A stretch of 63,580 nucleotides of DNA, the filler included, from Globobulimina sp. (Eukaryota): assembly GCA_003354225.1 (NCBI GenBank). It is 48 parts of 48 records of this genome, joined end to end, with 100 filler letters (N's around TTAATTAATTAA, not from the genome) between each part and the next. Parts side by side here need not be neighbours in the genome. Positions count along the whole stretch, not along the records: positions 7,967 to 9,193 come from PIVH01020557.1; positions 9,294 to 10,520 come from PIVH01020558.1; positions 10,621 to 11,847 come from PIVH01020559.1; positions 11,948 to 13,174 come from PIVH01020560.1; positions 13,275 to 14,501 come from PIVH01020561.1; positions 14,602 to 15,828 come from PIVH01020562.1; positions 15,929 to 17,155 come from PIVH01020563.1; positions 17,256 to 18,482 come from PIVH01020564.1; 40 more parts are not named here. The stretch is one strand, 5' to 3'. Below, one piece after another: positions 7,967-52,390 of the stretch (positions within the stretch are counted from its first letter, which is position 1; each line of letters opens with the position of its first letter). The position numbers and the translations under genes are program-made. The notes below the pieces were generated by a model. It was not told the DNA's origin. It saw only the letters and a program-made list of their open reading frames with translations, and made no database searches.

Positions 7967-9193
7967 AAAATCCAATCTCTGCTAGAAGTGACTGAAAAGG
8001 TGACATGCTTTCGAATGTTTAACCTCCGAACTTAGTTGACCCCAGTCAATTGTTAGCAGATTTATTTTGTTCGGCTGCAGCTGGTTTATCCTGTTTTGCG
8101 TCTGGAAGACCCTGTGGTTTTGCCATTTATTATTGTTTTAATTGTAATTAACAGTTTTGATCGAATCTGCTGATTGTTTTATACGTAACGTCAATGAGAT
8201 ATTGTGTAGCTAAATTGACGTCTTGATTGGCGGCAGTTAGCGCGTCCACAACGTCGTGATGTTAGTAGCCAGCACAGACAGCAGTCACAGAGTGATGGAC
8301 AGAATTTAAAATTTGATTATGCAAAAGCAAAACGTTGCGTACAAGACATCAATTTGGGCTTTAGCTGGAAGCGTTCTAAAAAGTGATTCACGTCCCTTCG
8401 AAACATTTATCAAGATATACATATCCAAAAATTCATTTCAAAATTACCTCTTACATTAAATTATTATACTCATAAACACCCATAAAAAGCATGGGGATTC
8501 CATAACACAGCATAATATATATAGCCTTGCATGTTATATAATTGTTTGTTTGATATTTTATGAAAAATATATATGTTTTTTTTTATATAAAATTGCAAAA
8601 GTATAACAGAAACACAAACAAAAAACAGAAATTAAAAATAATAAAATCATTAAAATGTGATGATTGGGATTGGAACCCAAATCTTATTTAAATATATGCT
8701 TTCCTTAAGCTATCATCACAATAAATTAGACGCCGTACATTATCTATTTATCGTTTTGTTTGTGTGATTGGTAATAATTTATTGCCACTAAAATCTCATT
8801 ATAAACTCATTTTTTGCTTTACTGTGGCTGTTGATTTTTGGAGCATGTGTATCATAGCAGAGGCTTTTATTTTAATTATTACTTTAATCCATAAAATTAT
8901 ATACCTTTTAATCCATTCCAATATGCTCCACACGACGTATAATAACTATATATACTATTTTATTTTTTATTTTTATTGCAAAATCGCCTGTTGTTTTTGA
9001 GACTGCTTTTAAACTAAGATAGCATATGCTTATGTTTCATAAATGTTTCGTATGTAAACCGCTATCGTAGTTTAAAAATCCAATCTCTGCTAGAAGTGAC
9101 TGAAAAGGTGACATGCTTTCGAATGTTTAACCTCCGAACTTAGTTGACCCCAGTCAATTGTTAGCAGATTTATTTTGTTCGGCTGCAGCTGGT
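7967..9193. repeat. Contig with an exact 119-bp terminal direct repeat: 1108-bp circular or tandem unit, non-coding
   Basis: 7967-8085 is identical to 9075-9193. Confidence 0.92.
8656..8720 (-). ncRNA. tRNA-like element without a proper anticodon arm
   Basis: TGTGATGA-TA-GCTTAAGGAAAGC-ATATATTTAAATA-AGAT-TTGGG TTCCAAT CCCAA-TCATCACA: 8-bp acceptor stem, D arm and 5-bp T arm. Confidence 0.7.
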
Positions 9194-9772
9194 NNNNNNN
9201 NNNNNNNNNNNNNNNNNNNNNNNNNNNNNNNNNNNNNTTAATTAATTAANNNNNNNNNNNNNNNNNNNNNNNNNNNNNNNNNNNNNNNNNNNNAAGGAAT
9301 GCATGGGGAGAATTTACATGACTTTGGTTTAAGGTATCAAGAGGAATTAGGCCCAGATGCATTCGAACAAAGCAATTGGAAACGTATTCAAAGAAATAAG
9401 ATTATGGCGCCTTCCTGGCTGAGCATTTGCCGGCACAAATAGGCACAGCATAAAAACAGGTTGCAGACACGCCGAGTCTTGAATAAATGTATGGGCTACT
9501 AAACTGTAGGGGGTAATAGAGGAAGACGAGGCGACTTAGTTACGAGTACAGGAAGTGGGCATGTTGGCACAAAAGCTAACCAACCATGCACGCTTCCACA
9601 AATAACTTTTTCACAGTATTAGGTATCACCGTAGCGTCAAGTAACCTTTACTAAGACTACCCATGAAGTAATCGTTTTTTACAGACAAAGCATTGCAATC
9701 AGTTCAGTTGAGAAATGATGAAGATAAAGGTATACCAGGTGAACACATTTGGACAACGTAACATAATATTTT

Positions 9773-10096
9773 AGTGACATACATCGTGCTCTGTATAAAT
9801 TATGAAGTTCAACTACAAGCATCGTTTGCGTCAACTTCACTTAAACGATAACAGCGCGTTCTACGGCCAAAGTAACTTAAACTTCAATGTGCATTGAGTG
9901 ACATACACCGTGCTCTGTATAAATTATGAAGTTCAACTACAAGCATCGTTTGCGTCAACTTAACTTAAACGATAAGTAGACGTTGTATGCCTTAAGTCAC
10001 CACAACTTTGTTGTGCTTTGAGTGTTATACAAGCTGTCAAGTACTACTAAAAGCATCGGTTGCGTCATCTTTACTAAAACGACTACGGCGCGTTCT
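9773..10096 (+). repeat. 124-bp tandem repeat, two good copies and one degenerate copy
   Basis: GTGCTCTGTATAAATTATGAAGTTCAACTACAAGCATCGTTTGCGTCAAC starts at 9786 and 9910. Confidence 0.9.
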
Positions 10097-10248
10097 TTGT
10101 AATCGTTAATCTGGTATCAAACCAACCTGTATGTCCTTTGCACGTATTCTTCTTTCCACAATTTACACCCTATAAGTTATCACCATTGTGTCAAGTTATT
10201 GGCATTTACTTAGTCATTTTTATTCCTTTGAGTACTTAGGTAAGAAGC

Positions 10249-10333
10249 CTGGCAGGTTGTCTACTGACGAGGTCCCCCTGTCCAGTGCTCTGTATCAGGT
10301 CTAGATAATTAATGGACCGAAACCTGATTCAGA
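10249..10333 (+). ncRNA. Hammerhead ribozyme with non-circularly permuted strand order
   Basis: Core CUGACGA 10264-10270, GAAA 10319-10322, GUC 10299-10301. Stem I 10257-63/10302-08; stem II 10271-75/10314-18; stem III 10322-28/10294-10300. Confidence 0.85.
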
Positions 10334-10436
10334 TAGGAGTAAAATTGCCTTATATAGTTGTACTGGGACGGATTTCCATCATTTTTTTAAAATATAGCCT
10401 TTTTATTTGTTTTTCACTTAATATAATTTTATTACA

Positions 10437-10520
10437 TACAGGGTGGTCCACCTAAAAGTGTCGATTTCATTCTTTTATAACTTTTCTAATTTTCAACGAA
10501 AGTTAATGAAATTTTCACAC
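10437..10520 (+). mobile_element. Probable left end of a Tc1/mariner-family element
   Basis: TA-CAGGGTGGTCCA terminus, then truncated by the contig end. Confidence 0.5.
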
Positions 10521-10620
10521 NNNNNNNNNNNNNNNNNNNNNNNNNNNNNNNNNNNNNNNNNNNNTTAATTAATTAANNNNNNNNNNNNNNNNNNNNNNNN
10601 NNNNNNNNNNNNNNNNNNNN

Positions 10621-11761
10621 ATTCTCAGCAACGCGACCATTCGAACAGATTAGTATTGATATCGTCGGACCATTGCCGACCACCGATGACGGATTCAAAT
10701 ATATGGTAACTATGATTGACAAGTTTAGTCGCTTGTGTATGATACAAGCAGTAAAGGAGACAGACACTCCGACCATAATACGAGCATTGGAGCGTTGGTA
10801 CTGTACATACGGACCACCAGACGCTATATTATCCGATAACGGGTCCCAGTTTCTATCAAAGATATATCAACATTACCAAAACACAAATAAGACAGACATA
10901 AAGTACATAACTGCGTATCATCCGGAATGCAATGGGCAAATTGAACGGCTCCATAGATGGATAAAAGAGAGGCTCGCGATGCTCGCATATGACTTAGGAC
11001 TGCAATTCGCTGTTGGTGCTGCGTACCAATGTGATAACTGGGCGCATTATTTGCCAATAATACAATATAAATACAATACCACCATAAATAGAATGACTTC
11101 GTATACTCCATACAATATAATATTCGGTATGGACACAAATGACATAAAAAAGATAAAATTCGATCCCAAATCGCCCGAATCATATAAAAAATACATGGCA
11201 GCACGGATACACATAATACGAAATACAGCAAATGAGAAGCAACGAAAATATGATACCGTACGAAAACGTTCCTATGATAAACGTTCCCGTAATATACGAA
11301 TAAGGAAAGGTGATAAAATACGTTATGACGCCTCGCAAAGCTGGAATAAGAGCGAGAAGTCATTAATAGCAAACTACGTGGGACCGTATGTGGTATTAGA
11401 TACATTGAATAATAATAAAACGCTCCATATTCAAGATATTGACAAAATATATGATCCATTCTGGACCGATGTAATGTATTGTAAACCGCATATGGATGAT
11501 GATGAGAGCCCAACGGATGTGTTGTTGACTCATTATGTACATGATATAAATCAGATTGATATGAATTTGAATGTGAACAAACCAAATAAACGACAATTAG
11601 ATAGATTGCATGGCGCATTGTATTATAATAAGTTATTCTTCGCGTATGCATGCAATCCGTTGTTACAAATTAATAATAGACCGAATAGCGAAGCGTTTAT
11701 GAATATGATTAATATGGATTCGATGGAATCGACTATGACTGACTGTGAATTAATTGATTGA
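10621..11761 (+). mobile_element. Ty3/Gypsy-type LTR retrotransposon integrase, 5'-truncated
   Basis: IDIVGPLP, IDKFSR, SDNGSQF and AYHPECNGQIER (DDE core), plus a GPY motif. Confidence 0.93.
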
Positions 11762-11773
11762 GCGATATCCTTT

Positions 11774-11847
11774 GAAGGAAAGGGTGATGTGGAGGTTATG
11801 GCTTGTGACTGACTTTGTAATGTTTTTTGATGTTTATTCTTGTGCTT
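11774..11847 (+). mobile_element. Polypurine tract and start of the 3' LTR
   Basis: GAAGGAAAGGGTGA followed by TGTGG shortly after the integrase stop codon. Confidence 0.7.
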
Positions 11848-12132
11848 NNNNNNNNNNNNNNNNNNNNNNNNNNNNNNNNNNNNNNNNNNNNTTAATTAAT
11901 TAANNNNNNNNNNNNNNNNNNNNNNNNNNNNNNNNNNNNNNNNNNNNGTATGGTATGAGTACAGCACCTACCGAGCTCAGGTATTGTTGCTTATTCATAT
12001 CTCTGCATATTAGAAGAATTTAAAAAAATTCCACGGTGCTGAAGCATCTAATTTGTCAGAAATTTCGTGCATAAAGAAACTCCATCGATAATAAAGGCGA
12101 TTATGATGAAGACAAAAAAATAGATTCCATAC

Positions 12133-12206
12133 TGTCGGCCTAGCTCAAGAAGAGCACTGTGTCAGATGCGTCCAGAGATTCAGGTTCAAATCCTGAGGCT
12201 ACGCCA
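12133..12206 (+). ncRNA. tRNA-like element (SINE-head-like)
   Basis: TGTCGGCC-TAGCTCAAGAAGAGC...AGAT-TCAGG TTCAAAT CCTGA-GGCTACG-CCA, with A- and B-box-like motifs. Confidence 0.75.
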
Positions 12207-12920
12207 ACCAAATACAAGCAACGAAATTAATATTAATGAATTGAATTGGGAATAGAATTGACATAAATTGGGATATAAATTGAATTTGAATAAATTGAAT
12301 TGGGATTTGTTTGATTATGATGGATCATGGATGATATAATTAAATAAGAAGGGTATATGAATAAAACGGGCGCCAACCCCAGAACTGGCATCAATATGTA
12401 CAGTATGTATGATATGAAAAGCAAAGTAAAGTAAAGTAAAGCAACAAGAAATAATAACTCGTTCAGTCTTGTTGCAAGGACTTCTTTTTTCAATACAAAA
12501 TTTAAAACTTATGGATTTGCGCATAAATGCTGCATTTTTTTGATACTAGCTGTAGTTTGTTAGGAAGTAAGAAAAGTGTCCTGGCACTTCAGGGCTTACA
12601 AAGAATGCAGCATTTATGCGCAAATCCATAAGTTTTAAATTTTGTATTGAAAAAAGAAGTCCTTGCAACAAGACTGAACGAGTTATTATTTGTTGTTGCT
12701 TTACTTTACTTTGCTTTTCATATCATACATACTGTACATATTGATGCCAGTTCTGGGGTTGGCGCCCGTTTTATTCATATACCTTTCTTATTTAATTATA
12801 TCATCCATGATCCATCATAATCAAACAAATCCCAATTCAATTTATTCAAATTCAATTTATATCCCTCAATTCTATTCCCAATTCAATTCATTAATATTAA
12901 TTTCGTTGCTTGTATTTGGT

Positions 12921-12989
12921 TGGCGTAGTCTCAGGATTTGAACCTGAATCTCTGGACGCATCCAGTGCTCTTCTTGAGCTAGGCCGACA
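12921..12989 (-). ncRNA. tRNA-like element (copy in the second palindrome arm)
   Basis: Same element; the anticodon-position arm is CTGGA-TGCG-TCCAG (4-nt loop). Confidence 0.75.
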
Positions 12990-13274
12990 GTATGGAATCT
13001 ATTTTTTTGTCTTCATCATAATCGCCTTTATTGTCGCTGGAGTTTCTTTATGCATGAAATTTCTGACAAATTAGATGCTTCAGCACCGTGGAATTTTTTT
13101 AAATTCTTCTAATATGCAGAGATATGAATAAGCAACAATACCTGAGCTCGGTAGGTGCTGTACTCATACCATACNNNNNNNNNNNNNNNNNNNNNNNNNN
13201 NNNNNNNNNNNNNNNNNNTTAATTAATTAANNNNNNNNNNNNNNNNNNNNNNNNNNNNNNNNNNNNNNNNNNNN

Positions 13275-14311
13275 TACCCATATAAATTTTTGTAAAGCCA
13301 AAATAACTATTTAAGAACCAGCTTGCCGAACTTAATCGGATTGATACCCGTGCAGGCTTCGGGAGTGTTATACGGTATGCTTGTACTGGGCATACTATTC
13401 CTGCGCTGCGAAATTGTGTGATAATCCATGATTTTATATTGCTGTTTGGCAATAATTGGCGCCACCTGTTTGTTGACATAATGTGTAGCAATGTAGATAG
13501 CATACCATTGTCCACCATTGGAGACGTTCAAAACGAAAAAGAAACATATTTGGTCAATATGTTCCGAGGGATTCTCAATGATTTGATATAAAAATATCGC
13601 AAACGTCAATAAGTTTTTAATTAACAAAATAATAAATATCTTCTTCAATTCAGCAGCAACAAAAAATTGATCCTGGAAATGTGGTGTTCGCCAATAAATC
13701 AATAATAATAAAATGAATGGAAAACATAAGTTTGCGGAACCAAACAATTGGAGTTTATGCCAGATGGATTGCTGTGACATTGTGGAGTGTATGAATGCAA
13801 AATAAATGATTGGTATCACAATGAATAGAGTTTGTATGCTGATCAAAGGAATAATGCAATGGTTTTTAAACCAAGTATAATTTCCATATTTCAATTTGTT
13901 GTTGATATACCAATTCGTTTTCAAATCTTTATAGCGTTTGTTAATGATTATGGCCCAATCAATTTTGACTGTGCACAATGCAAAATTTGTGTCGTAATGG
14001 ATTAGCCAAAATCGCCAGACCCAGCTGTATAATAACATGAATGAGAGCAATTGATATGGAATTTCGAAAATGGCGGCCCAACTGCTACCTTCACCAAACG
14101 AAATCACCATAAAAAATAAAAATATCCCCCAAATTAATATGCTAACCATGATGATCACTTCGTAGTGTGTGATTTGAGAGTAACGCTTTTTCATTATAAT
14201 ATGATGCCGATGTTTGTAATAATTGTAACCATTGTGCAAGGCAATTGGGATTAATACCATCCACCATACAATTGAGGTTGATACACACAAAGCCAAAGCC
14301 AACCCGAACAT
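13275..14311 (-). CDS. Multi-pass (GPCR-like) membrane protein, probably followed by a frameshifted RGS domain
   Basis: About 7 hydrophobic segments. After AAA-TAG a shifted frame reads SYFGFTK, resembling the start of an RGS domain (inference). Confidence 0.6.
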
Positions 14312-14859
14312 TAATGATTATTGACTCTACACAACTGAAGTGGGTAAAATTCTTAAGTCGACATTTACGAAAATTGTAAAATGTAGAAGAAAGCAGTATT
14401 TATGGAAACATACGTATCATATATTTTAAATATTATAAAACAAACCACACAAATCACATAATTTGACGGATCCGATCTCGATTAAAATCCTTGGAACCAC
14501 GNNNNNNNNNNNNNNNNNNNNNNNNNNNNNNNNNNNNNNNNNNNNTTAATTAATTAANNNNNNNNNNNNNNNNNNNNNNNNNNNNNNNNNNNNNNNNNNN
14601 NTTCTCATCATATAATTCGTCAAACTGCAATACATCAACAATATCGATATCACTATCATTAAATTTAAATCGTTCAAAGCATTGTATTTTTGTATTAAAA
14701 TGATATTGTTTTACTTGAGCAGTATTAAAGGAAATCATATTTTAAATCCATCCATACGTACACACTGAGTCATTTTTTAATGACTTATTATTCGTAGCCA
14801 ACAATTATTGTGGTTTAGTTATGCATAAAAACACACACCGCAAAGTCAGCAAATTTTTT

Positions 14860-15828
14860 TGTATGTAAAGACATATAACAATGGCGACAATCTATTACTT
14901 GTAAACATACTGAGCGATGGTAACAGTTTATTGTATAAAAAGATACTCCGAAATGGCAACGATTTATTGGTGATGAACATACTTAGCAACGACAACAATT
15001 TGTAGTATATAAACACACTCAGCAATGCCAACAATTCATTCTATGCCAAGATCTACAGCAATGACGCTAATATATTATTTTTGGGCATACTCAGCAATGG
15101 CAACAGTTTATTGTATGTCAACACGTACATCAATGGTGATATATATTATTCGTAAGCACAGACAGCAATGGCAACAATTTATTGTACGACAATACGTACA
15201 GTAATGGCAACAATTTAATATATAAATGGCGACGATTTATTATATATAAACACAGAAATGGCGACAATTTGGTATGGAAGATGTGTTTTCGATTTATTAT
15301 GTAATTGTGTATAAGCATCAAAATCTTATTTTTAAATAAATAATTCATCTCTTGCTCTCTCACACGTCCTGTAATGATCATATCTAATTCATTGCACTCA
15401 GTCACTCAGTCACTCAGTCACTCAGTCACTAACTCCACTCAACATCTGCATTTTTAAAGTGCTTCTCAGCCAATGAAAGCATGTCTTCGTTGTGGTTGAG
15501 AAAGTATCTGTTTGATCAACAATAGAAAGATCAAGTCATACAAAGTACAAATCTTAATAGTATTATATCTTGACATGTATAACAACAATTTATTATACTT
15601 CAATGCCAACAGTTTATTGACTCAACACGTACAGGAATGGCGACAATTTATTATAGGTAAACACGCAATTTATTATACTTCAATATGTACAACGACCACA
15701 CCTTTATTATAACTGAATACTACACAGCAATGGCAACATTTATTGTAAATAAACAATTTATTATATATACCGATATTTTACATCTTTGACTTCAACACTC
15801 ATAGCAAAATGACAACAATTTATACGTT
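14860..15828. repeat. Degenerate ~39-bp minisatellite, interrupted by a (CACTCAGT)n tract near 15395-15430
   Basis: AATGGC(A/G)ACAATTTATT core recurs at about 39-bp spacing. Confidence 0.8.
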
Positions 15829-15928
15829 NNNNNNNNNNNNNNNNNNNNNNNNNNNNNNNNNNNNNNNNNNNNTTAATTAATTAANNNNNNNNNNNNNNNN
15901 NNNNNNNNNNNNNNNNNNNNNNNNNNNN

Positions 15929-16358
15929 GGCGTAATGAAACACCGGGTGATATTGCTACTAGGTTTTGAATGGGGTCAATAATTTTAACCTCAGTATAAT
16001 GTGACATGTCAATTTGAATGCATTTGTCATTATTAATGCCAGAGGAACATGAGGACAGTCCCGAATATTGATGTCCTCCGCTTCTAATTGATACAACGTA
16101 ACCGCACTCATTTGCGTATTCTAACATTAATTTTATATCTTGATCACATTCTGCAATTAATATCTTTGTTGGTGAAACATTCTCAGGATACGATGTAAAG
16201 GCATACTGATGCTGTGCTGTGGTATAATTGGTACCTCCCTCCACTATCAAGCTACCACACAACAAATCTGTGTTAAACTCATCACAATCGATATCTGTTT
16301 GTGCTACAACAACACTTGTTGTTGTCATTGCAACTAAAGCTGTAATCATCGCGTTCAT
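15929..16358 (-). CDS. Secreted FAD-binding oxidoreductase (berberine bridge enzyme-like), 3'-truncated
   Basis: Signal peptide; RSGGHQYSGLS flavinylation motif. Confidence 0.85.
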
Positions 16359-17289
16359 TTAAAATATCGCTGTTTAATCTTTTCAGTTTTTTTGATCGAC
16401 ACGTAAAAGAAGAATTGATTTTAAGTTTTTCTTTTTTGTGGATTATGCTAATTATTTAGCTAAAATTAGCGATAATAGCGGCAATTATGAACATTTAACA
16501 AATTAATCATGTATTTGTTCCAAGCGTCATCATGATCACATATTTTATTATTGAAATTAAGCGTGTAATAATTGTTTTGTTTTAGTTAAACATGAATCTG
16601 AAACATATAATGCTTCTCTCTCAATCTCTAATTGTTGCTCTTTTATATCAATAAATGTATTCGGATAAATGTGATTTTCAATGTATGATATTTTGCAATA
16701 AATTAGTTCTAGTTTTCTGAGGCAAAAATGATACACATTGAGATAATAATAATTAATATTGAGGTAATTTATTAAATATCGATGGATGTTTGAATAAATT
16801 AGTTTTCCTAAATGTTTTAGTGGAGGATTTAATAATTGATAAATGAATGGAAGAATTTGAATGATTTGCATTAAAATATTTTGATTTGTTTGAAGGCGTA
16901 AAAAATAATTTTAAATAAATTAACAACAATTCGATTCTTTTATCATGTTTGCATTGAACTTGCGGACCATTTTTTGTACTTTGGATGGCGAAGCATTATT
17001 AATTTTGGAATGCAATGATAAAATCTCTACAAAATCTGGTTCCATCTGCAAACGATTTTTTTTGAATCCTCAAAACTTTTAATTTCAAAAAAAGTAGTAA
17101 CAGATGAAATCATGATAAAAGTATCGAACTTATTTTATTGACTACGTCTACAATCNNNNNNNNNNNNNNNNNNNNNNNNNNNNNNNNNNNNNNNNNNNNT
17201 TAATTAATTAANNNNNNNNNNNNNNNNNNNNNNNNNNNNNNNNNNNNNNNNNNNNTTTTATAATAAATATGATGTGCTTGAACCAATTC

Positions 17290-17601
17290 TCAGTCATCAA
17301 CTCTTTCCGATTCATCAATGTATGTATATTTTTTATTCCATTCATCCACTTCATGTTGCAACCATTGTTGCACATTATCAAAATTTTGTGGATACCGCGT
17401 GCTGTTTATAAACAAATGATTTTCATCCAAATCCCTCATTACAAATTTATGATTTGATTTCTCATTTAAACGTAATAAAAATTGTTTCAATGCGCCATCA
17501 CAAGTTATCAATAATCCACGATGTGCTTTGATTGCAGGTTGATTTGGCAAGTTTGGTTGTTGATGTTTCATCTCTTGTGCATGTTGAACAGAAGAAGCCA
17601 T
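17290..17601 (-). CDS. GTF2H5: TFIIH subunit Tfb5/TTDA
   Basis: AHRGLLITCDGALKQFLLRL...FVMRDLDENHLFI matches the Tfb5 pattern. Confidence 0.88.
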   Translation of the reverse strand: MASSVQHAQEMKHQQPNLPNQPAIKAHRGLLITCDGALKQFLLRLNEKSNHKFVMRDLDENHLFINSTRYPQNFDNVQQWLQHEVDEWNKKYTYIDESERVDD

Positions 17602-17651
17602 TGTGTTCATGAATATCCGCACGCAGTATAAAAAAAACGTTACTTAAAACA

Positions 17652-21236: not shown

Positions 21237-21377
21237 ATATTTACAATTGTGGTTACAAATATTTGTTGGTTTAATTCGAATATGCAAGGGTGGTAGAATT
21301 TCAGATTTTTCTTTTGGAAGAGAATCTATTTTCTCTTTAAAATGAAAAATCTTCATGCTTGTGTACAAGTTTCCCAT
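21237..21377 (-). CDS. Bacterial radical SAM protein, N-terminus
   Basis: IKPTNICNHNCKY, the start of a CxxxCxxC motif. Confidence 0.8.
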
Positions 21378-21387
21378 GGGCTATATC

Positions 21388-22050
21388 TCACTCAAAATAT
21401 ATAAATTCATAATCGCCGGTATAACCAAATTCTTCAAAAAGCCACACCCATTCCTGAGGCTTGAAAAAGGACTCACATGTCAATGCCCAGCATTGCAGAT
21501 TAAATAATTCTTCTTCATTTCTATAACCTTCAACAACGATATATTTATTTTTTCCCACCCGATCAATTTCTATAACAGCCGATTTGAGCTCAAATATCTG
21601 AAGATTGTGAAGCGTGGTGAGAGATACGACAAGGTCAAATTCTTTATCCCCAAAAGCGTATGGCGACTGGGCATTGTATTGAAACAGGTTGCCTTTTATC
21701 TCAGGTTTTGCATTCGCAACAGCATATTGAGATATATCAAATCCGGTAACTGTTGAATCCGGAAGAAGTTTGTTTAATTCATACAGCAAATAGCCTTTTC
21801 CACATCCCACATCCAGGATATTTGCATCACCCGGCAAATTATATGTTTCTATCAGGCGCCTTGCCACGGCTTCCCATCTTCCGTCATACTTGTAGCCGCC
21901 ATACCCGAACCTTCTGTCTCCATCCCAAAACTCAAGGTCATATTGTTTGGCAACACGCATGCAATTGACTTTATCGTCAGTCATCCTGTTAATATAGTTC
22001 CTTTTGGTCCTTGTATGTAATGGTGTTACGATATTTAACAACTTACCCAT
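21388..22050 (-). CDS. Bacterial class I SAM-dependent methyltransferase
   Basis: ILDVGCGKG motif; intronless; overlaps the upstream stop codon. Confidence 0.9.
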   Translation of the reverse strand: MGKLLNIVTPLHTRTKRNYINRMTDDKVNCMRVAKQYDLEFWDGDRRFGYGGYKYDGRWEAVARRLIETYNLPGDANILDVGCGKGYLLYELNKLLPDSTVTGFDISQYAVANAKPEIKGNLFQYNAQSPYAFGDKEFDLVVSLTTLHNLQIFELKSAVIEIDRVGKNKYIVVEGYRNEEELFNLQCWALTCESFFKPQEWVWLFEEFGYTGDYEFIYFE

Positions 22051-22463
22051 AATTGAGACTCCGTTTTCCTATACTGGGGATGTCCTTCTTTAACAGCAGC
22101 TGTTTTGCTGCCAAAGCAATGCCTTTAGAATCAAGCCCGTATTCTTGTTGTAAGTCCGCTTGTTCTGCATTTATTCTTATATATGCATCATTTAATCCTA
22201 ATCTCTTAAATGGAATAGACCCATCAAATTCTTCAGATAAGACCTCTGCCACAGCGCCCCCCAACCCACCGATAACATTATGTTCTTCCACAGTAATCAT
22301 TCCGGCGGTTTCTTTGGCGCATCGCAGCACTTCCATCCGATCAATGGGTTTAACTGTATGCATATTTATTACAGTTGCCTGAATACCGTCCTGCGATAGA
22401 ATATCTGCCGCATCAAACGAATTTTTTACCATGACACCATAAGCAATTAATGTAATGTCTTCG
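22043..22463 (-). CDS. Bacterial transketolase C-terminal subunit, partial
   Basis: VINMHTVKPID and TVEEHNVIGGLGGAVAE motifs. Confidence 0.92.
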
Positions 22464-27871: not shown

Positions 27872-28297
27872 TCAAGGTTTTTGTTAAATCACTGCAAAAC
27901 TGACTGTGATAATCGGCGTATAATTCTCTTCACCGACTCCATGACCAACTTTGTCTCCCTCGTAGTTACCCCTTCAAACGTTAAAAAATTAACTTATTCT
28001 ACGTTATTCCGAGAAACACAGAAACATCTTATAAACACAAAAACGATTCTATGGAAGATAAAATCACACACCAAACCTAAACAACAAATATATAATTTAA
28101 TTGCAGATAGACTAGCATATATTGGCAGAATCCACCCCAACAATAGTAACCTAATCATACCCAGCATCAATTCTGTGCAATTTGCAAAATATAAAAGTTA
28201 CCATCTTCCGCCCGGATCCAGTCATGAATCCCTCTATAACCTCACGGAGATGTTCCAGCAATCCGTGAGCCTGGAATCGGACTTACGTCCTGATTGA
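27872..28297 (+). mobile_element. RNase H domain, 3' end of a retroelement ORF
   Basis: LFTDS, WKIKSH and YNLIADRLA match RNase HI motifs. Confidence 0.8.
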
Positions 28298-30751: not shown

Positions 30752-31312
30752 TATTGATTTATTAATAAATTAAAGTAAAATGGAATATATTATAATATTA
30801 ATATGAATATGAAAGAGATTGATGTTGTTTTTGGTGAAGAAATGACAATTGCAAATACATGACATATTATATCATAATTCCCAATATGTTGCTCGTCAAT
30901 AATTAGAAACGAATTTCTATTTTAGTGGTCACATCAATCACAACTCGCTAAGTTGCATTTGGTGTCTCATTTGAATTAATATTGCAATTGAATCCATTCT
31001 CAATGACATCATCATTGAATCATATCATATCATATCATATCAAGTCGATTGTACATCCTTCAATTGATAAACTATCCACTGATTCCACTCCATAATTTAA
31101 CAAATATAATTTAGCGCCAACACCAACATTTGTTATATTTAGATCCAGATCAAAGTGACTTGAAAGTGTGCTATCTGATGTACATGACATGGAGGGTATG
31201 TGCCATGTTTTTGATTGTCATGTGATCAGCAAAAATCCATAATGTATACAGATACTAAGCATACAAATCATTTACTAGTAATTCTCAAATTGAATAATAT
31301 AATATTCTGAAA

Positions 31313-31337
31313 TTGGTGGTGTTGAAAAACACCTGGT
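31313..31337 (-). promoter_or_regulatory. Histone mRNA 3' stem-loop
   Basis: ACCA-GGTGTT-TTTC-AACACC-ACCAA about 45 nt after the H2A stop: 6-bp stem, 4-nt loop, ACCA tail. Confidence 0.85.
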
Positions 31338-31380
31338 AAAAAATAAAATAATTATATACAAAAAAAATTAAATGCTGATT

Positions 31381-40426: not shown

Positions 40427-40494
40427 GTCAAATCCAATTGTGAAAACTTTTATATCCTTACACTTTAGTCTTCAGCCATGGGCAAGAATTAATT

Positions 40495-42497: not shown

Positions 42498-43406
42498 ATG
42501 AGTAATTTAGAAGCAAAAGATTCTACAGGAGTTTCGAATGAAGAAGAAAAACATGAACAGTCGATGGGTTTGCAATATGGACAAGTTTCATTGCTTGATT
42601 TTTATAATATTTTACAACAAGCCATTGCATTGTATGATATCCGGACAAAAGATAAGTTCAAAAGATCACATGTTAAACATGCACAAAACCTAACAGTCCT
42701 AACTGATCCATCCAATTTGAAACGATTTAAATCAAATAAATACTTATTTTTTTCAATTGTAATCTATGGAGATAATGAAAGTAATACTAGAGAAAGATTG
42801 GAATGTTTATACAAAATTGCACAATCACAAGATAAAAAGGATAAATTTTATGTTTTTGATGGTGTTTATAATGATTTCTACGATAAATACAACTTTTTAT
42901 GTGTTGACGAAGAGTCAAAAGAAACGTCATTCGTTGAATATCCAGCAATGTTATTGCAGGATGAATTATTTATTGGTGATGCAAATATGGCCCAAAATAA
43001 TGAGATTATGGCAAATCTACAAATAACACATATTGTTAATGTCAGTTCTTTTTTGAATGAAAACATTGATAAAGAAATTAAATATTATCAGATTAAAATT
43101 TATGACGATGGATCAGAGAAAATAATGAATTATTTTGATAAAGTGTATGAATTTATTAACAATGATAATGTCAACAATAAAAATAAAAATAGAAAGAATA
43201 AAGTTTTTGTTCATTGCATGATGGGAATTAGTCGGAGCAGTACAATATGCATTGCATATTTAATGAAATCAAAAAAGTATTCATTGGATGAGGCATATTT
43301 ATTGGTCAGAAAAGCTAGACCTCAAATTCAACCAAACGGTGGATTTTGGGATCAACTCAGTAAATATGAGCAGCAAATTCAACAACATAAAATCACCAAG
43401 AAATGA
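42498..43406 (+). CDS. Rhodanese plus dual-specificity phosphatase (MKP-like)
   Basis: YDIR...FKRSHVKHA rhodanese-like motif; VHCMMGISRS; RPQIQPNGGF. Confidence 0.93.
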   Translation: MSNLEAKDSTGVSNEEEKHEQSMGLQYGQVSLLDFYNILQQAIALYDIRTKDKFKRSHVKHAQNLTVLTDPSNLKRFKSNKYLFFSIVIYGDNESNTRERLECLYKIAQSQDKKDKFYVFDGVYNDFYDKYNFLCVDEESKETSFVEYPAMLLQDELFIGDANMAQNNEIMANLQITHIVNVSSFLNENIDKEIKYYQIKIYDDGSEKIMNYFDKVYEFINNDNVNNKNKNRKNKVFVHCMMGISRSSTICIAYLMKSKKYSLDEAYLLVRKARPQIQPNGGFWDQLSKYEQQIQQHKITKK

Positions 43407-44883
43407 CTAATAAATATATTTTCAACCAAAACTTTCCTACAGCCAATGTCACTATGTTCACATCGAAATTTATATTTGAAATGAGCGAATAATTGAATTG
43501 TTTGAGAGTCGCCCGCGTTTTTTCTTCTTTTCTGCCAGTTTCAGATTGTATGCATTTGTATCGTATGCTGGCTCGTCATTTCACTGCAGTCACTATTGAG
43601 CTAATTTTCATTGTGGTGATCGGACTTCAACTTTTGGAGTAAATTAGCTCACTAGTTGTGTCTGCAGTGTCGACGGTCAAGAACTGGAAANNNNNNNNNN
43701 NNNNNNNNNNNNNNNNNNNNNNNNNNNNNNNNNNTTAATTAATTAANNNNNNNNNNNNNNNNNNNNNNNNNNNNNNNNNNNNNNNNNNNNAAATTGCCTA
43801 TTTGATAATATTTAACAATAATTCCAATTGGTACCCGTTCCCCCTCTCATTTCATACGACATGTGATTGGCTATTTTGATTTTGAGGTGGCATCCATTGA
43901 AAATATTCATTATAAATGCTCCATGCTCGACCTTCCCATGGATTCACGGGTTGTAATAATACAGTTCTTTACAAATCAAAAACTTTTCACCTCTTCTCTC
44001 TCAAATGTTTAATTTCAGTCTTCTGCCATGGAATGGATATTGGTTATAAAATGGGTAAAATAAACGCAAAAAGTGTCCTCTATAGAGGAAGCAACGTTGT
44101 TGATCCTTCTGTCGGATCCAATACGTCCATTGTTCAACCCCTAAAATAGGTTCAGCATTATTTACGGCCAATCGCTGCCTATGTTGTGGATATAGTTTTT
44201 AAAAGGCACTTTTTGTGGGACATTTGATGCTATTTGGTTTATTTCAGCGTGTGTTGCAAAAACAAAACGAAATTTTTATTAACTTTTGAATTATAAAATA
44301 TACAGAAAGTGGCATTCGCACAATCAGGGAACTAAATAAAATGTAGGCAAGAAAGAAGACTCTATTTCAGTGTATGTCTATAAAAACAAACTAATTCACA
44401 TTAATTTTTCAATTTTTAAAATATACAGAAATATAATTAATTATAGTTATTTGGAGAAAGAAAGAAAGAAGAATTCATGTGCCGCTCGTTATGATTTGCT
44501 TATTGGTCGAATGGTTTGTTTCGTTCATTAATTTGCTTATAATCCAAACCTAATTCTAATCATTATATTCTATAATCCAAACCATTTAAATGCACCAAGC
44601 TGAAAAACATAGTCAAAAAAAAAAGTTTGTTCAAGTCATCATGGCTGCTCTTAAGATCTTGACTGTGAATATTATAATTTATAAATAGCGCCGAACAGAA
44701 TGTCTCAAAATATCTTGCGAATTTGCCTGGAACCGCAGACATCGTGGAATTAATTCTAAAAAAATGTTCAAAATCAAATCCGATTGGAATCGAATCGCAC
44801 CGAATCGGGACTCGATTGCAAAAGGAATCTACGAAAATATATTTGCTGACTGCACACCATTGGAAATATGAATGATTTTGGCA

Positions 44884-45016
44884 TTGCCCACAACTACCTT
44901 CAACTGGAAATTCCTCGCTTCCTTAATGGATTTACCGCCGTTAATACGCAACATCGGCTTCATCGGACACTTACATCATGGAAAGACATCCTTTATCGAC
45001 ATGTTAGTGAAACAAA
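44884..45016 (+). CDS. EFTUD2: U5 snRNP GTPase Snu114 fragment
   Basis: PTTTFNWKFLASLMDLPPLIRNIGFIGHLHHGKTSFIDMLV. Confidence 0.88.
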
Positions 45017-45376
45017 NNNNNNNNNNNNNNNNNNNNNNNNNNNNNNNNNNNNNNNNNNNNTTAATTAATTAANNNNNNNNNNNNNNNNNNNNNNNNNNNN
45101 NNNNNNNNNNNNNNNNTTTTTTTGCTTTATCGTAAAAATCTATTTTCTAAGGGAAAAATCCCGTAATTCACTGAGGCCATTAAAACAAAAATAAAAAAAA
45201 AAGAAAAAAAAGTATGATATGCACAGGATAGTCAGACAATATCTAGGGAGGCCAAATTCGTTCACACACATCCCATGATGGGTAAAAATCCTAATACTCC
45301 CGTATTCATAGAGCAACGTTTTTTTTGTTTTTTTTCATTTTTGTTTTAAGAGCCTCAGTTACTAAAAGCTCTAATC

Positions 45377-45877
45377 ATGAGTGCAGAGGGGTTAATGTGG
45401 TATTTTTATGTTGTATTAATACTTTATATCGTATCATCTGTCATATTTCTGGTTTATATGGCAAAAAATGAATCAAATCACATAAATAAAAATGAATTGT
45501 TGAATAAATTTCTTTCTTTTTCTTTAATTATTTTAACTTTACCAATGGAATTTGCAATTGCTGTAATCATTTGGAGTGATAAAAAAGGATCATGAGATGT
45601 ATTGAGTTATGATGGTGTTATATCATTATTCAGTACAAAATCAGAATATTGGTTAATTGGAATATGGGGTGAAACAATAATATGTGCAATGATGATTGTT
45701 GTGTTAATTGTCTATGATGCAGTCTCCAATTCATTCAAATTATGGTTTTCCATTCCAGTGTTGCTGCTTGTAATCCCTTGTCAGGCATTTGCATTGATTC
45801 CGCATATCATCATTCGAACAACGTTGCTATTTTGCTGCAAAAAAACATCAAACTATAAATTAACGAAAAAGATATAA
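45377..45877 (+). CDS. Small four-TM hypothetical protein with an in-frame TGA (45593-45595)
   Basis: Two hydrophobic ORFs in the same frame, separated only by TGA. Confidence 0.55.
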
Positions 45878-46442
45878 TTTTCATATTAACAAAGTATTGT
45901 ATTAAATATCTAAGTGAGTGTTGAGGACTGAGTGTCCAAAGTTGATTCTTTTATTTTTGTTATTTTGTTACATATATTTATTTCCTGTGTGGTTTCTTTT
46001 CTTTTTTGTGTTGTGTACACACCATTGCTAAACATTGTGTTTTTTTACACATGTTTATGTTAAATTAATCGAATCTAATCTAATCTAAAGAGCCTCAGTT
46101 ATATTAATACTTATGCGACTTAATAACGAGTACAACAAACAAGCTGAAATCTATTAAAAAATGGTGGGCTTAGTTATTTTTTGTCCATTTACACCATTTA
46201 TCATAAAAATATATTGATTTTGAGTGGCATTTCCTAACATTTTCATCTTTGATACCTGATAATTGTTTACATTTCAATAAATCTTTAATGGTTATTTTAT
46301 AGTGAACATCGTCATCATCATCTATATCATCATCAGTGTCCTNNNNNNNNNNNNNNNNNNNNNNNNNNNNNNNNNNNNNNNNNNNNTTAATTAATTAANN
46401 NNNNNNNNNNNNNNNNNNNNNNNNNNNNNNNNNNNNNNNNNN

Positions 46443-47668
46443 ACAAGTGTGTTGATAATGATATGCGTAGTTTGCCATCATATGTTGCGGATTTATTTAC
46501 ATATTGGTGCCTGCAAAGAGAATTTGTAACATTTGAGACCTTCCAAACAGAAAAGAATTACATGAACAACAAATTGAAAAAGTTCTTTTTTTATAAAAAA
46601 ACAGATGCGATAAATATAAAGAATGTGATTAAATTATTACCGAATTTGAAACATTTTTATAATATAAATGGAGAATTAGAGTTTGTGGATGATTTGCCAG
46701 TAAACAATGAACAAAGACTGAATTTGGTTGAGAATGATAACATCAATGAAGGATTCCGGTTGCTGTATAACTGCCAACCACATGACATACCATACATTGT
46801 TGCAGACGCCATGGCTGGAATACGTTTTGATTTTAATAAATGTAAAGGTGTTTTGAAGGAATCCTTTAAAATAAAAATATCAAAATTAAGTATCGAACCT
46901 GTATTATTTATTAAAAATGATAAATATTTAAATGTTCAATTCAGTAATATTGGCATGGATGGAATTGTTGAAGCTGTGAGAAATAAAATAAATGAAGAAA
47001 CAGAGACAGATATAATAATTGATATGATAATGACTGAATTAACAAATCGCAAATTCGAGTATAGTATTTGTGATATAGTTACTCAAAAAAGAGCATTTGT
47101 AAATTTATTTTCAACACAATTAATGATGTTTGAGCAAGAAATATTAAAACGTGAAAAAGTAGAAATTAATAATTTGTATCAAATAGCAATGAAAACAGCA
47201 ATATTTGATGAGAATACTGCGTCGCAATTAGCAAAGTATTTATATGTGAAAATGTTGGATGAAAAACAAAGAATTAAACCATGGAAATGTAAAAATTGTG
47301 ATTTTTTTAATTGTAAGTTAATGGTAAATGGTTTATGGAGACTCTATAATCAATTAAATAAATGCGGTTTGTGTGGACATAAAAGATATGAAAAGATTGA
47401 TGCGCAATCACAGCATATTAAAAAGGAAAAACCATATCATATTAAACCAACACTTTATCAGAAATTAGATAAAAACATTGCAAAAATACCAACAATAATT
47501 TCAGAGCAATTAGCAGAAATCTATGATTCCGATTGTATTTTAAATACGAAAGCAATTATAAATGTATCAAATTCACAAATTATATATTTGATACAAAATT
47601 ATTTTATTCAAACAGCAGGAAAATTGAATAATTATAAGGAGAAAATCGTAGCATACTTTAAAGTGCGT
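46443..47668 (+). CDS. Hypothetical protein with a Zn-ribbon, partial
   Basis: Open frame of about 400 aa; WKCKNC..N...CGLCG. Confidence 0.65.
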
Positions 47669-47768
47669 NNNNNNNNNNNNNNNNNNNNNNNNNNNNNNNN
47701 NNNNNNNNNNNNTTAATTAATTAANNNNNNNNNNNNNNNNNNNNNNNNNNNNNNNNNNNNNNNNNNNN

Positions 47769-48994
47769 GCTGCATCTTTTTTCTCTTCGTCCTTCATCGA
47801 CGAATACTCATTGAACTCTTCTTGCAACTTTGCATTCGACTCATTAATCCCTCTGAAAACCTTCAAAAACTGCCTGCTGTCATCTTCATTGTGCAGCCGC
47901 GGGAAAAAGCCGTTTTGCGCTTGGAACTCCAACGCCGTGGCATACAACAAATGGATCAATTTGCCAGCACCTTGTTCCCACGCACCTTGATCGGGATGCT
48001 GTGGCCCAAAAAATGCAGCCAAGCCTTCCGTGGCCGGCACAGTCAGCGTATCCACGAAGGGACGGAACTTGTACTCCCGCGAAGGCTTCACTTCGTTGAC
48101 CAAGCCGCCCGTCTTCCAGGTCGACAATTGCTTGCCGGCCAAGCTAGTTTGGCTCAAATCCAGTCGCAATTTCTCAAAAACCTGTTTTTCGCGAGGCTCG
48201 ATGCGGCCGTCCGGTCGTTTATAATCGTATTTGTAATATATGCGTTTCACGCGGAGCCCGGGCAAATTGTTTAGTTTCTCGATGTAAACGGCATCGTCGG
48301 TTTCCATGGCGATTTGAGCCTCGTCTGGCACGCCTTCGATGTCTTCGATTAATATGGAATCGCCGTCATCGAAGCCATGGCGTTTGGCGGCTACGGTGAT
48401 GATGCCGTCCTCATTGAGGTCGTCAATGACTAAGACTCGCGTTGGTTCGCCGTCGGCGTCGGTCACAGTGTGGGAGGCCCCGAAATCGCTGAAAAAATGC
48501 GCGGTTATGCCGTGGGTCACGGCCAAGATGAATATGCCTGGCGTGGATTTGCCATCTGCGTTCTGTGTGATTTGCAGTTTGAAACCGAAGTTGTGTATAT
48601 TTTTTAGTTTCGAACTAGAAAAAAATGATTTTTTTTTCATGCATAGTTTTTTTTTTTAGTTTGAAACTGAAATTGGATATGCATGAAATATCAGAAATGA
48701 TTTTTTTTCAGTTTGAAACTGAATGAATGTGCGATTTTGCGCCACGGTGAATCGCACTGAACTGTTCTGGATCGACATAATTGATTGATACGATTTAATT
48801 CATTTCGAGGCAACGTTTGAGTGATAACCACAGCGCCGAATGATTGGATGAAATCATCTTTTAACTCGCCAGAGACCGCTGTTACATCGCAATATGGATT
48901 TAACTCTGCTAATATTTTGGTGCACGCTTCAGATCGCGTACATTGACCAACATGTTTTTGAGATAAATAAAAATTTGCGCCCAAATCTGCAATG
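47769..48994 (-). CDS. UBA1: Ubiquitin-activating enzyme E1, partial, intron 48563-48762
   Basis: DLGANFYL...LAELNPY, FSDFG..HTVTDADGE, RHGFDDGD, GGLVNEVK. Confidence 0.9.
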
Positions 48995-49094
48995 NNNNNN
49001 NNNNNNNNNNNNNNNNNNNNNNNNNNNNNNNNNNNNNNTTAATTAATTAANNNNNNNNNNNNNNNNNNNNNNNNNNNNNNNNNNNNNNNNNNNN

Positions 49095-49636
49095 AACAAC
49101 AGATCTGTTATTTTAACAACCCATTCAATGGAAGAGGAATGTATTTCAAATACATATAAAACATACAATATATAACATAATATAATATAATATACAATAT
49201 ACAGTGTGAAGCATTATGTAATCGCATCGGTATTATGGTTAATGGACAGATTCAATGTATTGGAAATAACCAGCATTTAAAAACAAGATTTGGAAAAGGA
49301 TATCAATTGGATTTAGATTTATGTTTTGATCATGTTGATGATGATGATAAAGAGCATTGTAATATTATTGAATCAATACAAAATAAATTAAAACAAGAAT
49401 TTGGAGAAATTAAATTAATCGAACATAATTCAAATAGAATATCATATCAATTATTGGGTTCTGATGAGAATAATAAGGCTATGCGATTAGGTCCAATGTT
49501 TAATGTATTACAGGATATGAAAAATAATGAATTTAAAGATATTATTGATTCATACGGATTATCGCAGACCACTTTGGAACAGGTGTTTTTAAGGATGGCC
49601 AAAAAAGGTAATGAAATGAAACAAAATGAACTGTGA
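49095..49636 (+). CDS. ABCA-family transporter C-terminus, intron about 49137-49204
   Basis: SVILTTHSMEE / CEALCNRIGIMVNG, HLKTRFGKGY, SQTTLEQVF. Confidence 0.92.
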
Positions 49637-50201
49637 CCATTATTCCATGAATGAATTCAAAATAATTTATGTAACATGATCTTACCTCATGTACTATGAC
49701 TGTTTGATTTTGTAATATACATTTATATCGGTTTACAACTTTATATTTATTTTTTTCAGAAACATCATAACCAACCAACATTTGAAAACTCTGAAAATTT
49801 TGGATCTTTTTTGAATTCTTCTCTACTCATAAACCTATAACAAACGTATACAAAAGTATACAAACTAACTCTCGAAACACCATTCTTTAGTCCGAACACG
49901 TACAACACACAATTAATTTGACGTAGATTGTATGTGTTTAGCATTAGTACATGGAACTAAAATCTCGAATTAAATTATATATTTTCACGTGAATCTATTG
50001 ATTACGTTCAAGTGTGGATCGTACTGTAACACCGTGAATTAGAAAAATCATTGTTTTTTCAGTGAAAAACATACTTTTCATCGAAAATACACAGTTTGCA
50101 TTTAAATGGCACTGATTTTACATTGAAAAACATGCTTTTTGATGCAAAAGTGCGTTAATTGGAAATATTAATAGCAACTAATATGACAAATAATCTTCGA
50201 A

Positions 50202-50247
50202 GTACAGTAGTGTTCCCGATAAGAGGTACGCATATTAGTACTAATAT
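50202..50247 (+). mobile_element. Second copy of the Tc1/pogo-like terminal repeat
   Basis: Matches the reverse complement of 4033-4077. Confidence 0.7.
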
Positions 50248-50449
50248 ATATATTAGTTGTACTAATATATTTATAGAATGGAGCACATGTCACGCATTTT
50301 TTTACTAATATATAATATATNNNNNNNNNNNNNNNNNNNNNNNNNNNNNNNNNNNNNNNNNNNNTTAATTAATTAANNNNNNNNNNNNNNNNNNNNNNNN
50401 NNNNNNNNNNNNNNNNNNNNTCTATTTCCATTCATTTTGTAACTAACAG

Positions 50450-51574
50450 GTTATGCGTGTCAAGCGGCACAATTACATGCAGAATATGCGTCATTTTTCA
50501 CTTTGGATTGTTTAGTGTCACAAACTTATACATGCACCTCGCAATGGATATGGTTCCCTGAAAATGTCGCTGGCACTAAAATGTCCATTATATACGCTCG
50601 AGATGACAGCTTTAGCGATGCCGGTTTGTCACAGCAACCACAATTATTTTATGCAATAAATGGTTGGGCAGATGTCGATATACAATACGATGTAAATAAA
50701 AATTGGAACTGGCATTCAGGAACAATGTATTGTAATATCGATTACGTACAATTATGTTCATTCGCAACCAATGCATTTGCATGTGGTACAGGTGATGACT
50801 GCGATAATCCTATTTTGTTAACGACCGCTGCACCCACACCACCAACCGGTGCACCCACTGCATTTCCCACAGCAAATCCAAGCTATCCAAGTCGTTCACC
50901 AACCAACTTACCCACTGTCCCAACACAATCGCCCTCAGAAAACCCTACAAAAAATCCAACCAACCCTACTCCAGCACCAACCTCTGTGCCTACGCCCGGT
51001 CCAACTGCTAATCCAACACTTGTACCAACACAAAATCCGAGCACAGTCCCAACAACAAATCCAACCGATTCACCGACAAAAACATTTATAGCCAATGACG
51101 ATTTTGCTGATTATACAGTTACATGTGATACTTCTTATGAATGTCAGCGTACATTGATAATCTGTCCGACAAATGCAAATTGTAATATTATATGTTCTGC
51201 GTTGGGCGCATGCAATGAGGCTGTCATTCAATGTCCTGTTAATAGTGGCATTTGTGCTGTAACATGCACTGCAAATTCAGCGTGTAAGAATGCAGATATT
51301 CAATGGATTGATGGTCTGGAGAACAGTATAAATTGTGCAGCATTTGACAGCTCTTGCTATGGAATACATTTTCGGCCCTATGATGAAAATACGCCATGGA
51401 CTATGGATTGTTCTGCCGCCAGCAATATGTGTAAAGCCGCGATATTTGATTGTCCACAAAATGCAGATTGCACCGTAAAATGTGATCCTATCTCCACTTC
51501 AATATCGAATGTATGCCAAGGAGCTGTTATTAATGGACCTGTCAATCATCAATTGACTGTTATGTGCAATCAAG
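50450..51574 (+). CDS. Cys-rich repeat plus PT-repeat extracellular protein, internal exon
   Basis: PT repeats flanked by C-x-x-x-x-x-C...I-x-C-P repeats; bounded by AG and GT. Confidence 0.8.
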
Positions 51575-52313
51575 GTATTTTATACTATTTATATTTTAAT
51601 ATCATTCCAAAAACATTGTTTTTGATGCAAATTGTATACACACTCTNNNNNNNNNNNNNNNNNNNNNNNNNNNNNNNNNNNNNNNNNNNNTTAATTAATT
51701 AANNNNNNNNNNNNNNNNNNNNNNNNNNNNNNNNNNNNNNNNNNNNTAAAAAACTAAAAAACTTCACTTTAGTTAACGGTTTTTTTTAAGTGCACTCACA
51801 CTTTTTTTTGTAAAAGCATGGCAGGATCACAATCATTGGAATTTTTCGAAAAAAATAATTTTACCATCAAAAAATAGCAGACTACCACCTTAAATAAGCT
51901 CACTTCAAGAAAACTTCAATATATAACATCTCACCAGTAAGACTGGACAAAAAAACATATCGATCAATATTATTACAGTTTGCATTGGGTTTGCGAAAAA
52001 ACAATTGCAAATTGACTATGTCTAACTGACGGTTTTTTTAGCGTAACTTTTAATGTTAACTTTACACTGCGATGTCTTTTAGATTGCCAATTCTAAACAT
52101 GATTTCTGCTAAAGAATTATTTTTTTGTTTCATAGTATTTTCATAAATATTTTTTTGTTGTTGCAATAGGGGTCTCCGATAAGTACTGGATTTTTTTGCT
52201 GTTCGAAAATGTTTTTTTGTTTTTTACTGATCTTATCGAACACCTCACCAATCGTCGCTATGCCTGCGTCTCATCGTAATATATTTTGAAAAAATAACTC
52301 GGTCCATATGAAT

Positions 52314-52390
52314 TGTCGCTTAGCTAAAGAAGAGCGCTGGAATGGATGATACGTCCAGGAGATTCAGGTTCAAATCCTGAGGCGATGCCA
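52314..52390 (+). ncRNA. tRNA-like element (SINE-head-like)
   Basis: TGTCGCT/GGCGATG acceptor stem, CTGGA/TCCAG arm with a 12-nt loop, TCAGG TTCAAAT CCTGA T arm, then CCA. Confidence 0.78.

Follow-up and report, generated by a model that had tools for sequence, protein, structure and literature searches.

In a 63,580-nucleotide stretch of the Globobulimina sp. genome (GCA_003354225.1), four short sequences beginning at positions 8656, 12133, 12921, and 52314 have the shape of a tRNA that has lost its anticodon. We argue that these cassettes are probably tRNA-derived RNA polymerase III (Pol III) units kept by selection inside the ends of non-autonomous DNA transposons, and are not tRNAs or the heads of short interspersed elements (SINEs). 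Cassettes are located 100 to 400 bp inside inverted-repeat ends of such transposons, and most hosts are Pangu-like PHIS (PIF/Harbinger–ISL2EU–Spy) elements with AAT/ATT target duplications, AG ends, and a DDE transposase beside the same ends in coding relatives. The window, by which we mean the whole stretch analyzed, consists of 48 contigs of ≈1.2 kb each joined by N spacers and derives from an AT-rich, eukaryotic assembly of 70 Mb in 48,370 contigs.

All four sequences described in the first-pass annotation are present, on three contigs, and their D stem, ≈5-nt D loop, AGAT motif, and T arm (TTGGG/CCCAA versus TCAGG/CCTGA) match the quoted sequence. The acceptor halves also read as quoted, except that the 3′ half at 12921 is GACTACG, which breaks one pair not recorded earlier. 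The contig that carries 12133 and 12921 is a palindrome with arms 93% identical, and these two copies are its two arms; they therefore represent one subfamily, perhaps one locus, which reduces the reported four copies to at most three loci in two lineages. No contig bridging this palindrome was found (run X1), and a real fold-back and an artifact of assembly or amplification are both possible.

The copy at 8656–8719 on the minus strand, which defines lineage A, has a 7-bp acceptor, a 5-nt D loop, and a reduced anticodon arm. Its acceptor, D, and T stems fold as the top half of a tRNA (z = −3.27), and it is the only window copy to fold in this way or to give an Rfam tRNA match (49.8 bits). The AT-only stub reported for this copy is indeed a reduced arm, which the family alignment reveals as a worn form of the 4- to 5-bp ATCTT/AAGAT hairpin of other lineage-A copies. 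The other three copies form lineage B. Those at 12133–12206 (plus strand, with 5 bases inserted into its anticodon arm) and 12921–12989 (minus strand, on the second palindrome arm, with a 4-nt loop and the broken acceptor pair) are delimited by sequence and family alignment and both favor a non-cloverleaf structure (z = −1.0 and −2.0, respectively). The copy at 52314–52390 (plus strand) has a 12-nt loop and folds weakly (z = −0.8). ARAGORN called no tRNA in the window.

These copies belong to a large family. Exact genomic matches number 124 for the T arm of the 12133/52314 type and 175 for a combined pattern covering lineages A and B, with no match to the reversed-pattern control in either case; 100 of the 175 are among the matches listed, and the family counts given below cover the genomic loci that were retrieved (designated by L-numbers). 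Lineage C was found by looking inward from transposon ends, and its T arm has 40 exact matches; further types (D: L345, L349, and L026) came from the Rfam list. In the retrieved loci, hidden Markov model (HMM) profiles identified 57 copies of A, 103 of B, and 35 of C/D, and 53 A, 93 B, and 32 C copies (178 in total) were parsed. The family of tRNA shape proposed in the first-pass annotation exists in hundreds of copies, far beyond chance. Other degenerate tRNA-like types with different acceptor and T stems occur in L345, L349/L350, L026 (1594–1659), L357, and L358; L350 and L026 form clean cloverleaf folds (z about −4) with loops of 8 and 3 nt. The cassette pattern had no match in viral contigs. 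Seven cassette loci were found in metagenome contigs, all from one assembly and 73 to 98% like elements of the genome itself, and so provide no cross-species evidence.

A tRNA-related head with A and B boxes is found in the sequence of all lineages, and the remaining anatomy is variable. D loops read AAGGA, AATGA, ATTGA, AAGAA, or AAGCA, and the conserved D-loop GG and U33-bearing 7-nt loop of a canonical tRNA are not traits of the family. Anticodon loops in lineage B range from 3 to 26 nt and are often grown by GGAT/GAAT slippage. Two terminal features once taken as shared do not extend to the family: CCA follows the acceptor in 33/93 lineage-B copies and in none of the 53 A or 32 C copies, and the first base in lineage B is T, G, C, or A rather than a constant TG start. 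At least four T residues occur within 15 nt 3′ of the cassette in 41/48 lineage-A copies and in 0/77 lineage-B copies.

The parsed set bears out that the shape is a non-decoding one: a YU-type loop of 7 nt occurs in 2 of its 178 copies. The tRNA ancestry that is evident here would also be expected if an ordinary host tRNA gene had left copies that decayed or contain an intron, and relaxed ARAGORN calls a few copies tRNA-Ile or tRNA-???. The microsatellite growth of the loops speaks against such an origin, and no canonical parent was found, either among the retrieved host tRNAs, a set that is incomplete (63 of 4169 candidates scored), or by a genomic pattern search for a canonical version of the B/C arm. 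The top matches among the retrieved tRNAs are family members or low-scoring, contaminant-like bacterial tRNAs, and we regard descent from an ordinary host tRNA gene as very improbable. Host tRNA genes themselves lie in close pairs (Lys–Val, Gly–Ser, Ala–Thr, and Leu–Leu), some a few bases apart (L039, L043–L045, L341, and L344).

The contig with 8656 has matches to a pair of conserved arms, which form the borders of complete 1.5- to 1.8-kb elements with unrelated interiors. The left arm of this Pangu-like, non-autonomous element covers 8356–8655 (plus strand), and its outer ≈60 bp, including the terminal inverted repeat (TIR), is absent from this copy; the right arm with its TIR covers 8867–9159 (plus strand), with the end at 9156 and ATT at 9157–9159. 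The cassette points toward the left end and is directly followed by a T-rich run (8640–8655, minus strand) that is likely a Pol III terminator, given its sequence and the frequency of T4 within 15 nt in lineage A. The right-end sequence recurs at 8038–8051 owing to a 119-bp overlap of the contig ends; the first and last 119 bases of the contig (7967–9193) are identical, so this contig is a tandem unit that has collapsed, a circle, or a loop made in assembly, and the same is seen in L061 and L159. The genome contains 74 exact matches to the core of the 8656-type TIR. ATTAGA stands at the left end in 15/17 cases and AATTGA at the right end in 14/19; the right end of this type reads TG, not AG.

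The 52314 copy lies 150 bp inside a different, G-type end (107 matches). An AAT target site and the left end of this Pangu-like element occupy 52165–52313 (plus strand), and a complete relative (L264) is flanked by an ATT/ATT duplication. The segment is homologous to the end in L170 that precedes the start of a DDE_Tnp_4 transposase, and the alignment (52165–52290) runs through the start codon (ATG at 52260–52262); the cassette begins ≈50 bp past this start-codon homolog and points into the element. TIRs of these hosts are 27 to 36 bp long and begin with AG. Matching AAT/AAT or ATT/ATT duplications flank 7/8 complete G-type elements, two of the eight being metagenome contigs, and the one complete T-type element. 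Together with two elements of the CAAG type described below, ten complete elements have matching duplications, and five of them contain a cassette. No paralogous empty site was found among the retrieved loci.

Coding relatives share these ends. Among 38 DDE_Tnp_4 matches in the genome, L157 and L263 show the 8656-type left arm leading into a 367-residue DDE_Tnp_4 open reading frame (ORF; Pfam E = 1.5e-18), and window positions 8356–8452 match the DNA immediately 5′ of this ORF in L157 (91.8% over 97 bp). The D, D, and E residues of the L263 transposase are invariant in six of six aligned proteins, and L263 further encodes a convergent second ORF of >600 residues before the contig stops short of the right end. 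The Pangu group is described as having an ANT duplication, AG or GG ends, TIRs of 11 to 40 bp, and two ORFs (PMC4482050), and our host elements share with it the ANT duplication, AG ends, 27- to 36-bp TIRs, and a DDE transposase with a second ORF. They differ in that the 8656 type has one TG end and that the accessible part of the same description, which concerns plants, fungi, and animals, mentions no RNA-gene cassette (PMC4482050). By their ends, duplications, and ORFs, the 8656- and 52314-type hosts are Pangu-like.

Several side observations concern these ends. Adjacent elements share one AAT/ATT in L133 and L267, and ends of different families abut or nest in L133, L267, L339, L322, and L127, suggesting that elements insert into each other's ends. 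A 78-bp minimal derivative, nearly just two TIRs with an ATT duplication, is found in L130 (591–668), and a motif resembling the end of another AWT family lies at 52010–52022, 155 bp upstream of the G-type end.

The 12133/12921 subfamily resides in a second kind of transposon, 200 to 280 bp inside a CAAG end (67 matches). Its sub-terminal arm at 11948–12132 (plus strand; mirror copy at 12990–13174) aligns with L146, L154, L225, L253, and L261, of which L225 is a complete element; the window contig begins ≈55 bp inside the transposon end. Both complete CAAG-type elements (L225 and L323) have a 7-bp duplication, as does L315 by eye. The 7-bp duplication and long or fold-back arms are reminiscent of Galileo and P elements (PMC3573991); no transposase is linked to this family, and a search with the P-type transposase profile PF21787 gave no match but recovered none of its controls either. 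L323 (328–357) is a 30-bp minimal derivative, nearly just two TIRs, with a 7-bp duplication.

These structures bear directly on the suggestion, made in the first-pass annotation, that the shared TG marks the ends of long terminal repeats (LTRs) with a Pol III cassette or a self-primer in them, as in Cassandra. Beyond the TG start of the four window copies nothing favors it, and even this base varies in lineage B. Homology runs 100 to 280 bp upstream of the cassettes to an inverted-repeat end, and complete elements carry TIRs and 3- or 7-bp duplications. A 394-residue ORF that by eye resembles a retroviral-type integrase (10577–11761, plus strand) is on a contig of its own and is unrelated to the cassettes. 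As the mapped ends are inverted repeats with 3- or 7-bp target duplications, with no paired direct LTRs bounded by TG…CA, we reject an LTR arrangement for copies with mapped ends and give it next to no credence overall.

Placement and orientation are consistent with recruitment to transposon ends. An inward-reading end of one of four types lies ≤450 bp upstream of 42/64 lineage-B and 11/19 lineage-C copies; the same test in reverse orientation finds none for either lineage, and background windows contain such an end in 3/180 and 0/168 cases. Counting from the ends, a cassette lies within 600 bp of 15/48 G-type ends and represents three lineages (8 B and 5 C inward, 1 A and 1 B outward), and is found in 2/22 CAAG-type ends and in 3/3 long 8656-type arms. 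Judging by these counts, derivatives commonly carry the cassette but do not require it, and it was gained on more than one occasion. Cassettes sit at the end which, in coding relatives, starts the transposase gene: lineages B and C lie behind the transposase start codon, in sense orientation, whereas lineage A is antisense to the direction of the transposase.

An alternative that must be weighed against this pattern is that tRNA-derived SINE heads or retroposed tRNAs landed in miniature transposable elements with inverted repeats (MITEs) and were copied as neutral passengers. The A and B boxes, the several lineages, and the frequent end of homology 10 to 20 bases 5′ of the cassette count in its favor; a 6-bp acceptor with N-CCA in the 33 CCA-bearing lineage-B copies hints at a mature-tRNA source, and there is a precedent in the fish V-SINE carried by the MER6 MITE (PMC6887750). 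However, upstream DNA is common to another copy in 67/77 B/C copies, and a unique 5′ flank and an own duplication are generally lacking. Direct repeats near cassettes largely resemble those of the controls: repeats of ≥10 bp flank 5/66 cassettes versus 0/66 controls, and four of the five are AT-rich or far off; the sole likely real duplication on inspection is an 11-bp repeat around the lineage-A copy in L175. Three stretches with frames that by eye resemble LINE (long interspersed element) reverse transcriptase or RNase H (1329–2556, minus strand; 27872–28297, plus strand; and L135) were used as queries for a shared 3′ tail and returned just two short internal repeat matches and no 3′ match. 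Because lineage A is directly followed by T runs, the “body” that its copies have in common downstream, with a TIR at the end, is not transcribable from the cassette, and no transcribable body with a LINE-like or A-rich tail is present in this lineage. Fixed orientation across four end types, change slower than in the flanks (see below), and retention of a tRNA head that MER6 has lost add to these objections, and this passenger origin, already weakened, seems unlikely to us even though acceptor changes in lineages A and B look neutral.

Conservation was examined with the HMM profiles and with parsimony counts on FastTree trees in place of a covariance model or an R-scape-type test. For lineage A, we used 12 of the 15 loci from a BLAST search with the whole 8656 contig, the other three being without a full cassette. 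We counted 15 changes over the 64 cassette columns and 187 over the 318 columns of the arm (Poisson p = 2e-5), a 2.5-fold slower rate for the cassette, which also has 2 indel patterns versus 28. For lineage B (74 distinct copies with an exact T arm), the D and anticodon stems together changed 18 times over 16 columns and the acceptor, which is the stem of this lineage that is conserved least, 65 times over 12 (p = 8e-11); the flanks accumulate 10 to 14 changes per column. Neighboring DNA thus changes faster than the D arm and the anticodon stem and, in lineage A, faster than the cassette as a whole; the anticodon loop is subject to drift through slippage and deletions. This pattern fits a Pol III promoter and upholds one part of the earlier claim that the tRNA shape is under selection; the other part, maintenance of acceptor pairing, is not supported in lineages A and B.

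Stem covariation likewise holds in part. The acceptor, D, and T stems differ yet stay paired between lineages, and this compensation fits old structural selection or different parent tRNAs. Within lineages, all acceptor and T helix pairs are formed in 32/53 A, 30/93 B, and 21/32 C copies. Acceptor transitions that keep pairing (G·U) versus those that break it (A·C) number 12:8 in A and 18:17 in B, which looks neutral, and 9:2 in C, which is suggestive of compensation; none of these ratios is significant. In lineage C, pairing-keeping changes are enriched on internal branches (9:1 versus 12:15 at the tips, p = 0.02); no such enrichment is seen in A or B, and the pooled lineages give p = 0.06.

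These data also speak to a cutting signal for RNase P and RNase Z, comparable to mascRNA, that trims Pol II transcripts from the transposase promoter or frees downstream hairpins as small RNAs. The sense placement of B and C cassettes after the transposase start codon, compensation of acceptor and T stems between lineages, the internal-branch pairing of lineage C, and the clean top-half folds of the A and D types (z = −3.3 to −4.0) are in accord with this idea, as are hairpins downstream of part of lineage B. RNase P and RNase Z, though, read the acceptor, and no stem of lineage B is conserved less well; together with the T helix, it is complete in just 30 of 93 lineage-B copies; in addition, lineage A is antisense to the transposase and 12133 and 12921 prefer other folds. 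We therefore consider a processing signal rather improbable. As to the hairpins, one or two, some in tandem, follow many lineage-B cassettes (52455–52499, L002, L136, L177, and L229) and show some pairing-preserving changes; that in the window (plus strand, downstream of 52314) has a 12-bp stem common to part of lineage B. GC-rich tandem hairpin units also occur upstream of one lineage-A cluster (L188, L192, L204, L208, and L210).

Several points weigh against selected Pol III units in transposon ends as well. The cassette is absent from 33/48 G-type and 20/22 CAAG-type ends, and none of 21 transposase loci carries one, from which it follows that it is dispensable. Some loci were retrieved through their ends, which inflates the placement fractions, and counts are inflated by descent. 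A known end is nearby, on the downstream side, in just 8/42 lineage-A copies; other lineage-A clusters share flanks on both sides and their ends are undefined. Most B and C copies were found via the T arm, so that T-arm conservation is uninformative here. The parsimony counts come from short trees, edge columns gather rearrangements, and A and B boxes alone leave the conservation of the anticodon stem unexplained. Finally, if cassettes were captured repeatedly and recently from a source that is itself young, the outcome could look like selection.

Comparison with known systems helps to place the cassettes. Like tRNA-derived SINEs, they carry a degenerate tRNA whose A and B boxes are internal and whose anticodon region is free; they differ in generally lacking a tail, a LINE-like 3′ end, and a duplication of their own, in being copied within TIR elements, and, in lineage A, in an immediate terminator. 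MER6 offers the closest likeness for a SINE-type sequence spread inside a non-autonomous DNA transposon, as a single capture that lost its tRNA head (PMC6887750), in contrast to the retained tRNA part, several lineages, and at least four end types found here.

Cassandra, a terminal-repeat retrotransposon in miniature (TRIM), carries 5S sequence in its LTRs, and the CACTA element Caspar contains 5S-derived sequence. Both resemble our elements in building a derivative of a Pol III gene into a non-autonomous mobile element, which here is tRNA-derived and resides in class II elements of two kinds with no LTRs. Shrunken D and anticodon arms are also found in the tRNA mimics mascRNA and menRNA and in the tRNA–miRNA units of gammaherpesviruses; our cassettes are alike in these arms and differ in the poorly kept acceptor of lineage B. 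Pol III cassettes in mobile DNA are familiar. A literature search, with most subscription papers and Repbase outside its scope, found no report of tRNA-like cassettes retained in class II elements.

Other features of the window are separate from the cassettes. Two contigs look foreign, one with two abutting bacterial-looking ORFs (21237–22463) and one with 45% GC (47769–48994). A match to the Rfam histone 3′ stem-loop (31293–31338, minus strand) scores 29.3 bits, under the gathering score of 34.

If the cassettes are indeed selected Pol III units, the following course of events may be envisaged. Copies would have multiplied by DNA transposition, and cassettes would have been swapped between families by recombination or by template switching during gap repair, as ≈100 bp of upstream DNA is shared by elements with different ends. 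TFIIIC and Pol III are predicted from sequence to occupy the A and B boxes; such occupancy may leave the end of the transposon open to access or stop Pol II that reads through from an orphaned transposase promoter, and cassette-bearing derivatives would out-copy those without. Barrier and silencing effects of tRNA genes are known from yeast. Tentatively, and with less conviction than we attach to selection on the cassettes as such, we propose that non-autonomous DNA transposons of at least two superfamilies in this genome may have repeatedly recruited and traded anticodon-less tRNA genes as a selected cis part, that is, a Pol III unit placed just behind the point where the lost transposase began, which protects the element against silencing or increases its rate of excision.

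Were this the case, class II would have in these elements its own equivalent of Cassandra, one that arose repeatedly from several lineages of tRNA mimic. Derivatives of Pol III genes are well known from retro-elements, whose transcription depends on them; cut-and-paste elements pass through no RNA stage, and a tRNA mimic that is kept, more conserved than its arm, and oriented one way per lineage therefore points to a benefit at the level of DNA or chromatin. Where protist assemblies are fragmented, annotation will mistake such repeats for tRNA pseudogenes or SINEs, and they would provide a natural test of whether transposons can exploit the barrier or Pol II-blocking activity of tRNA genes.

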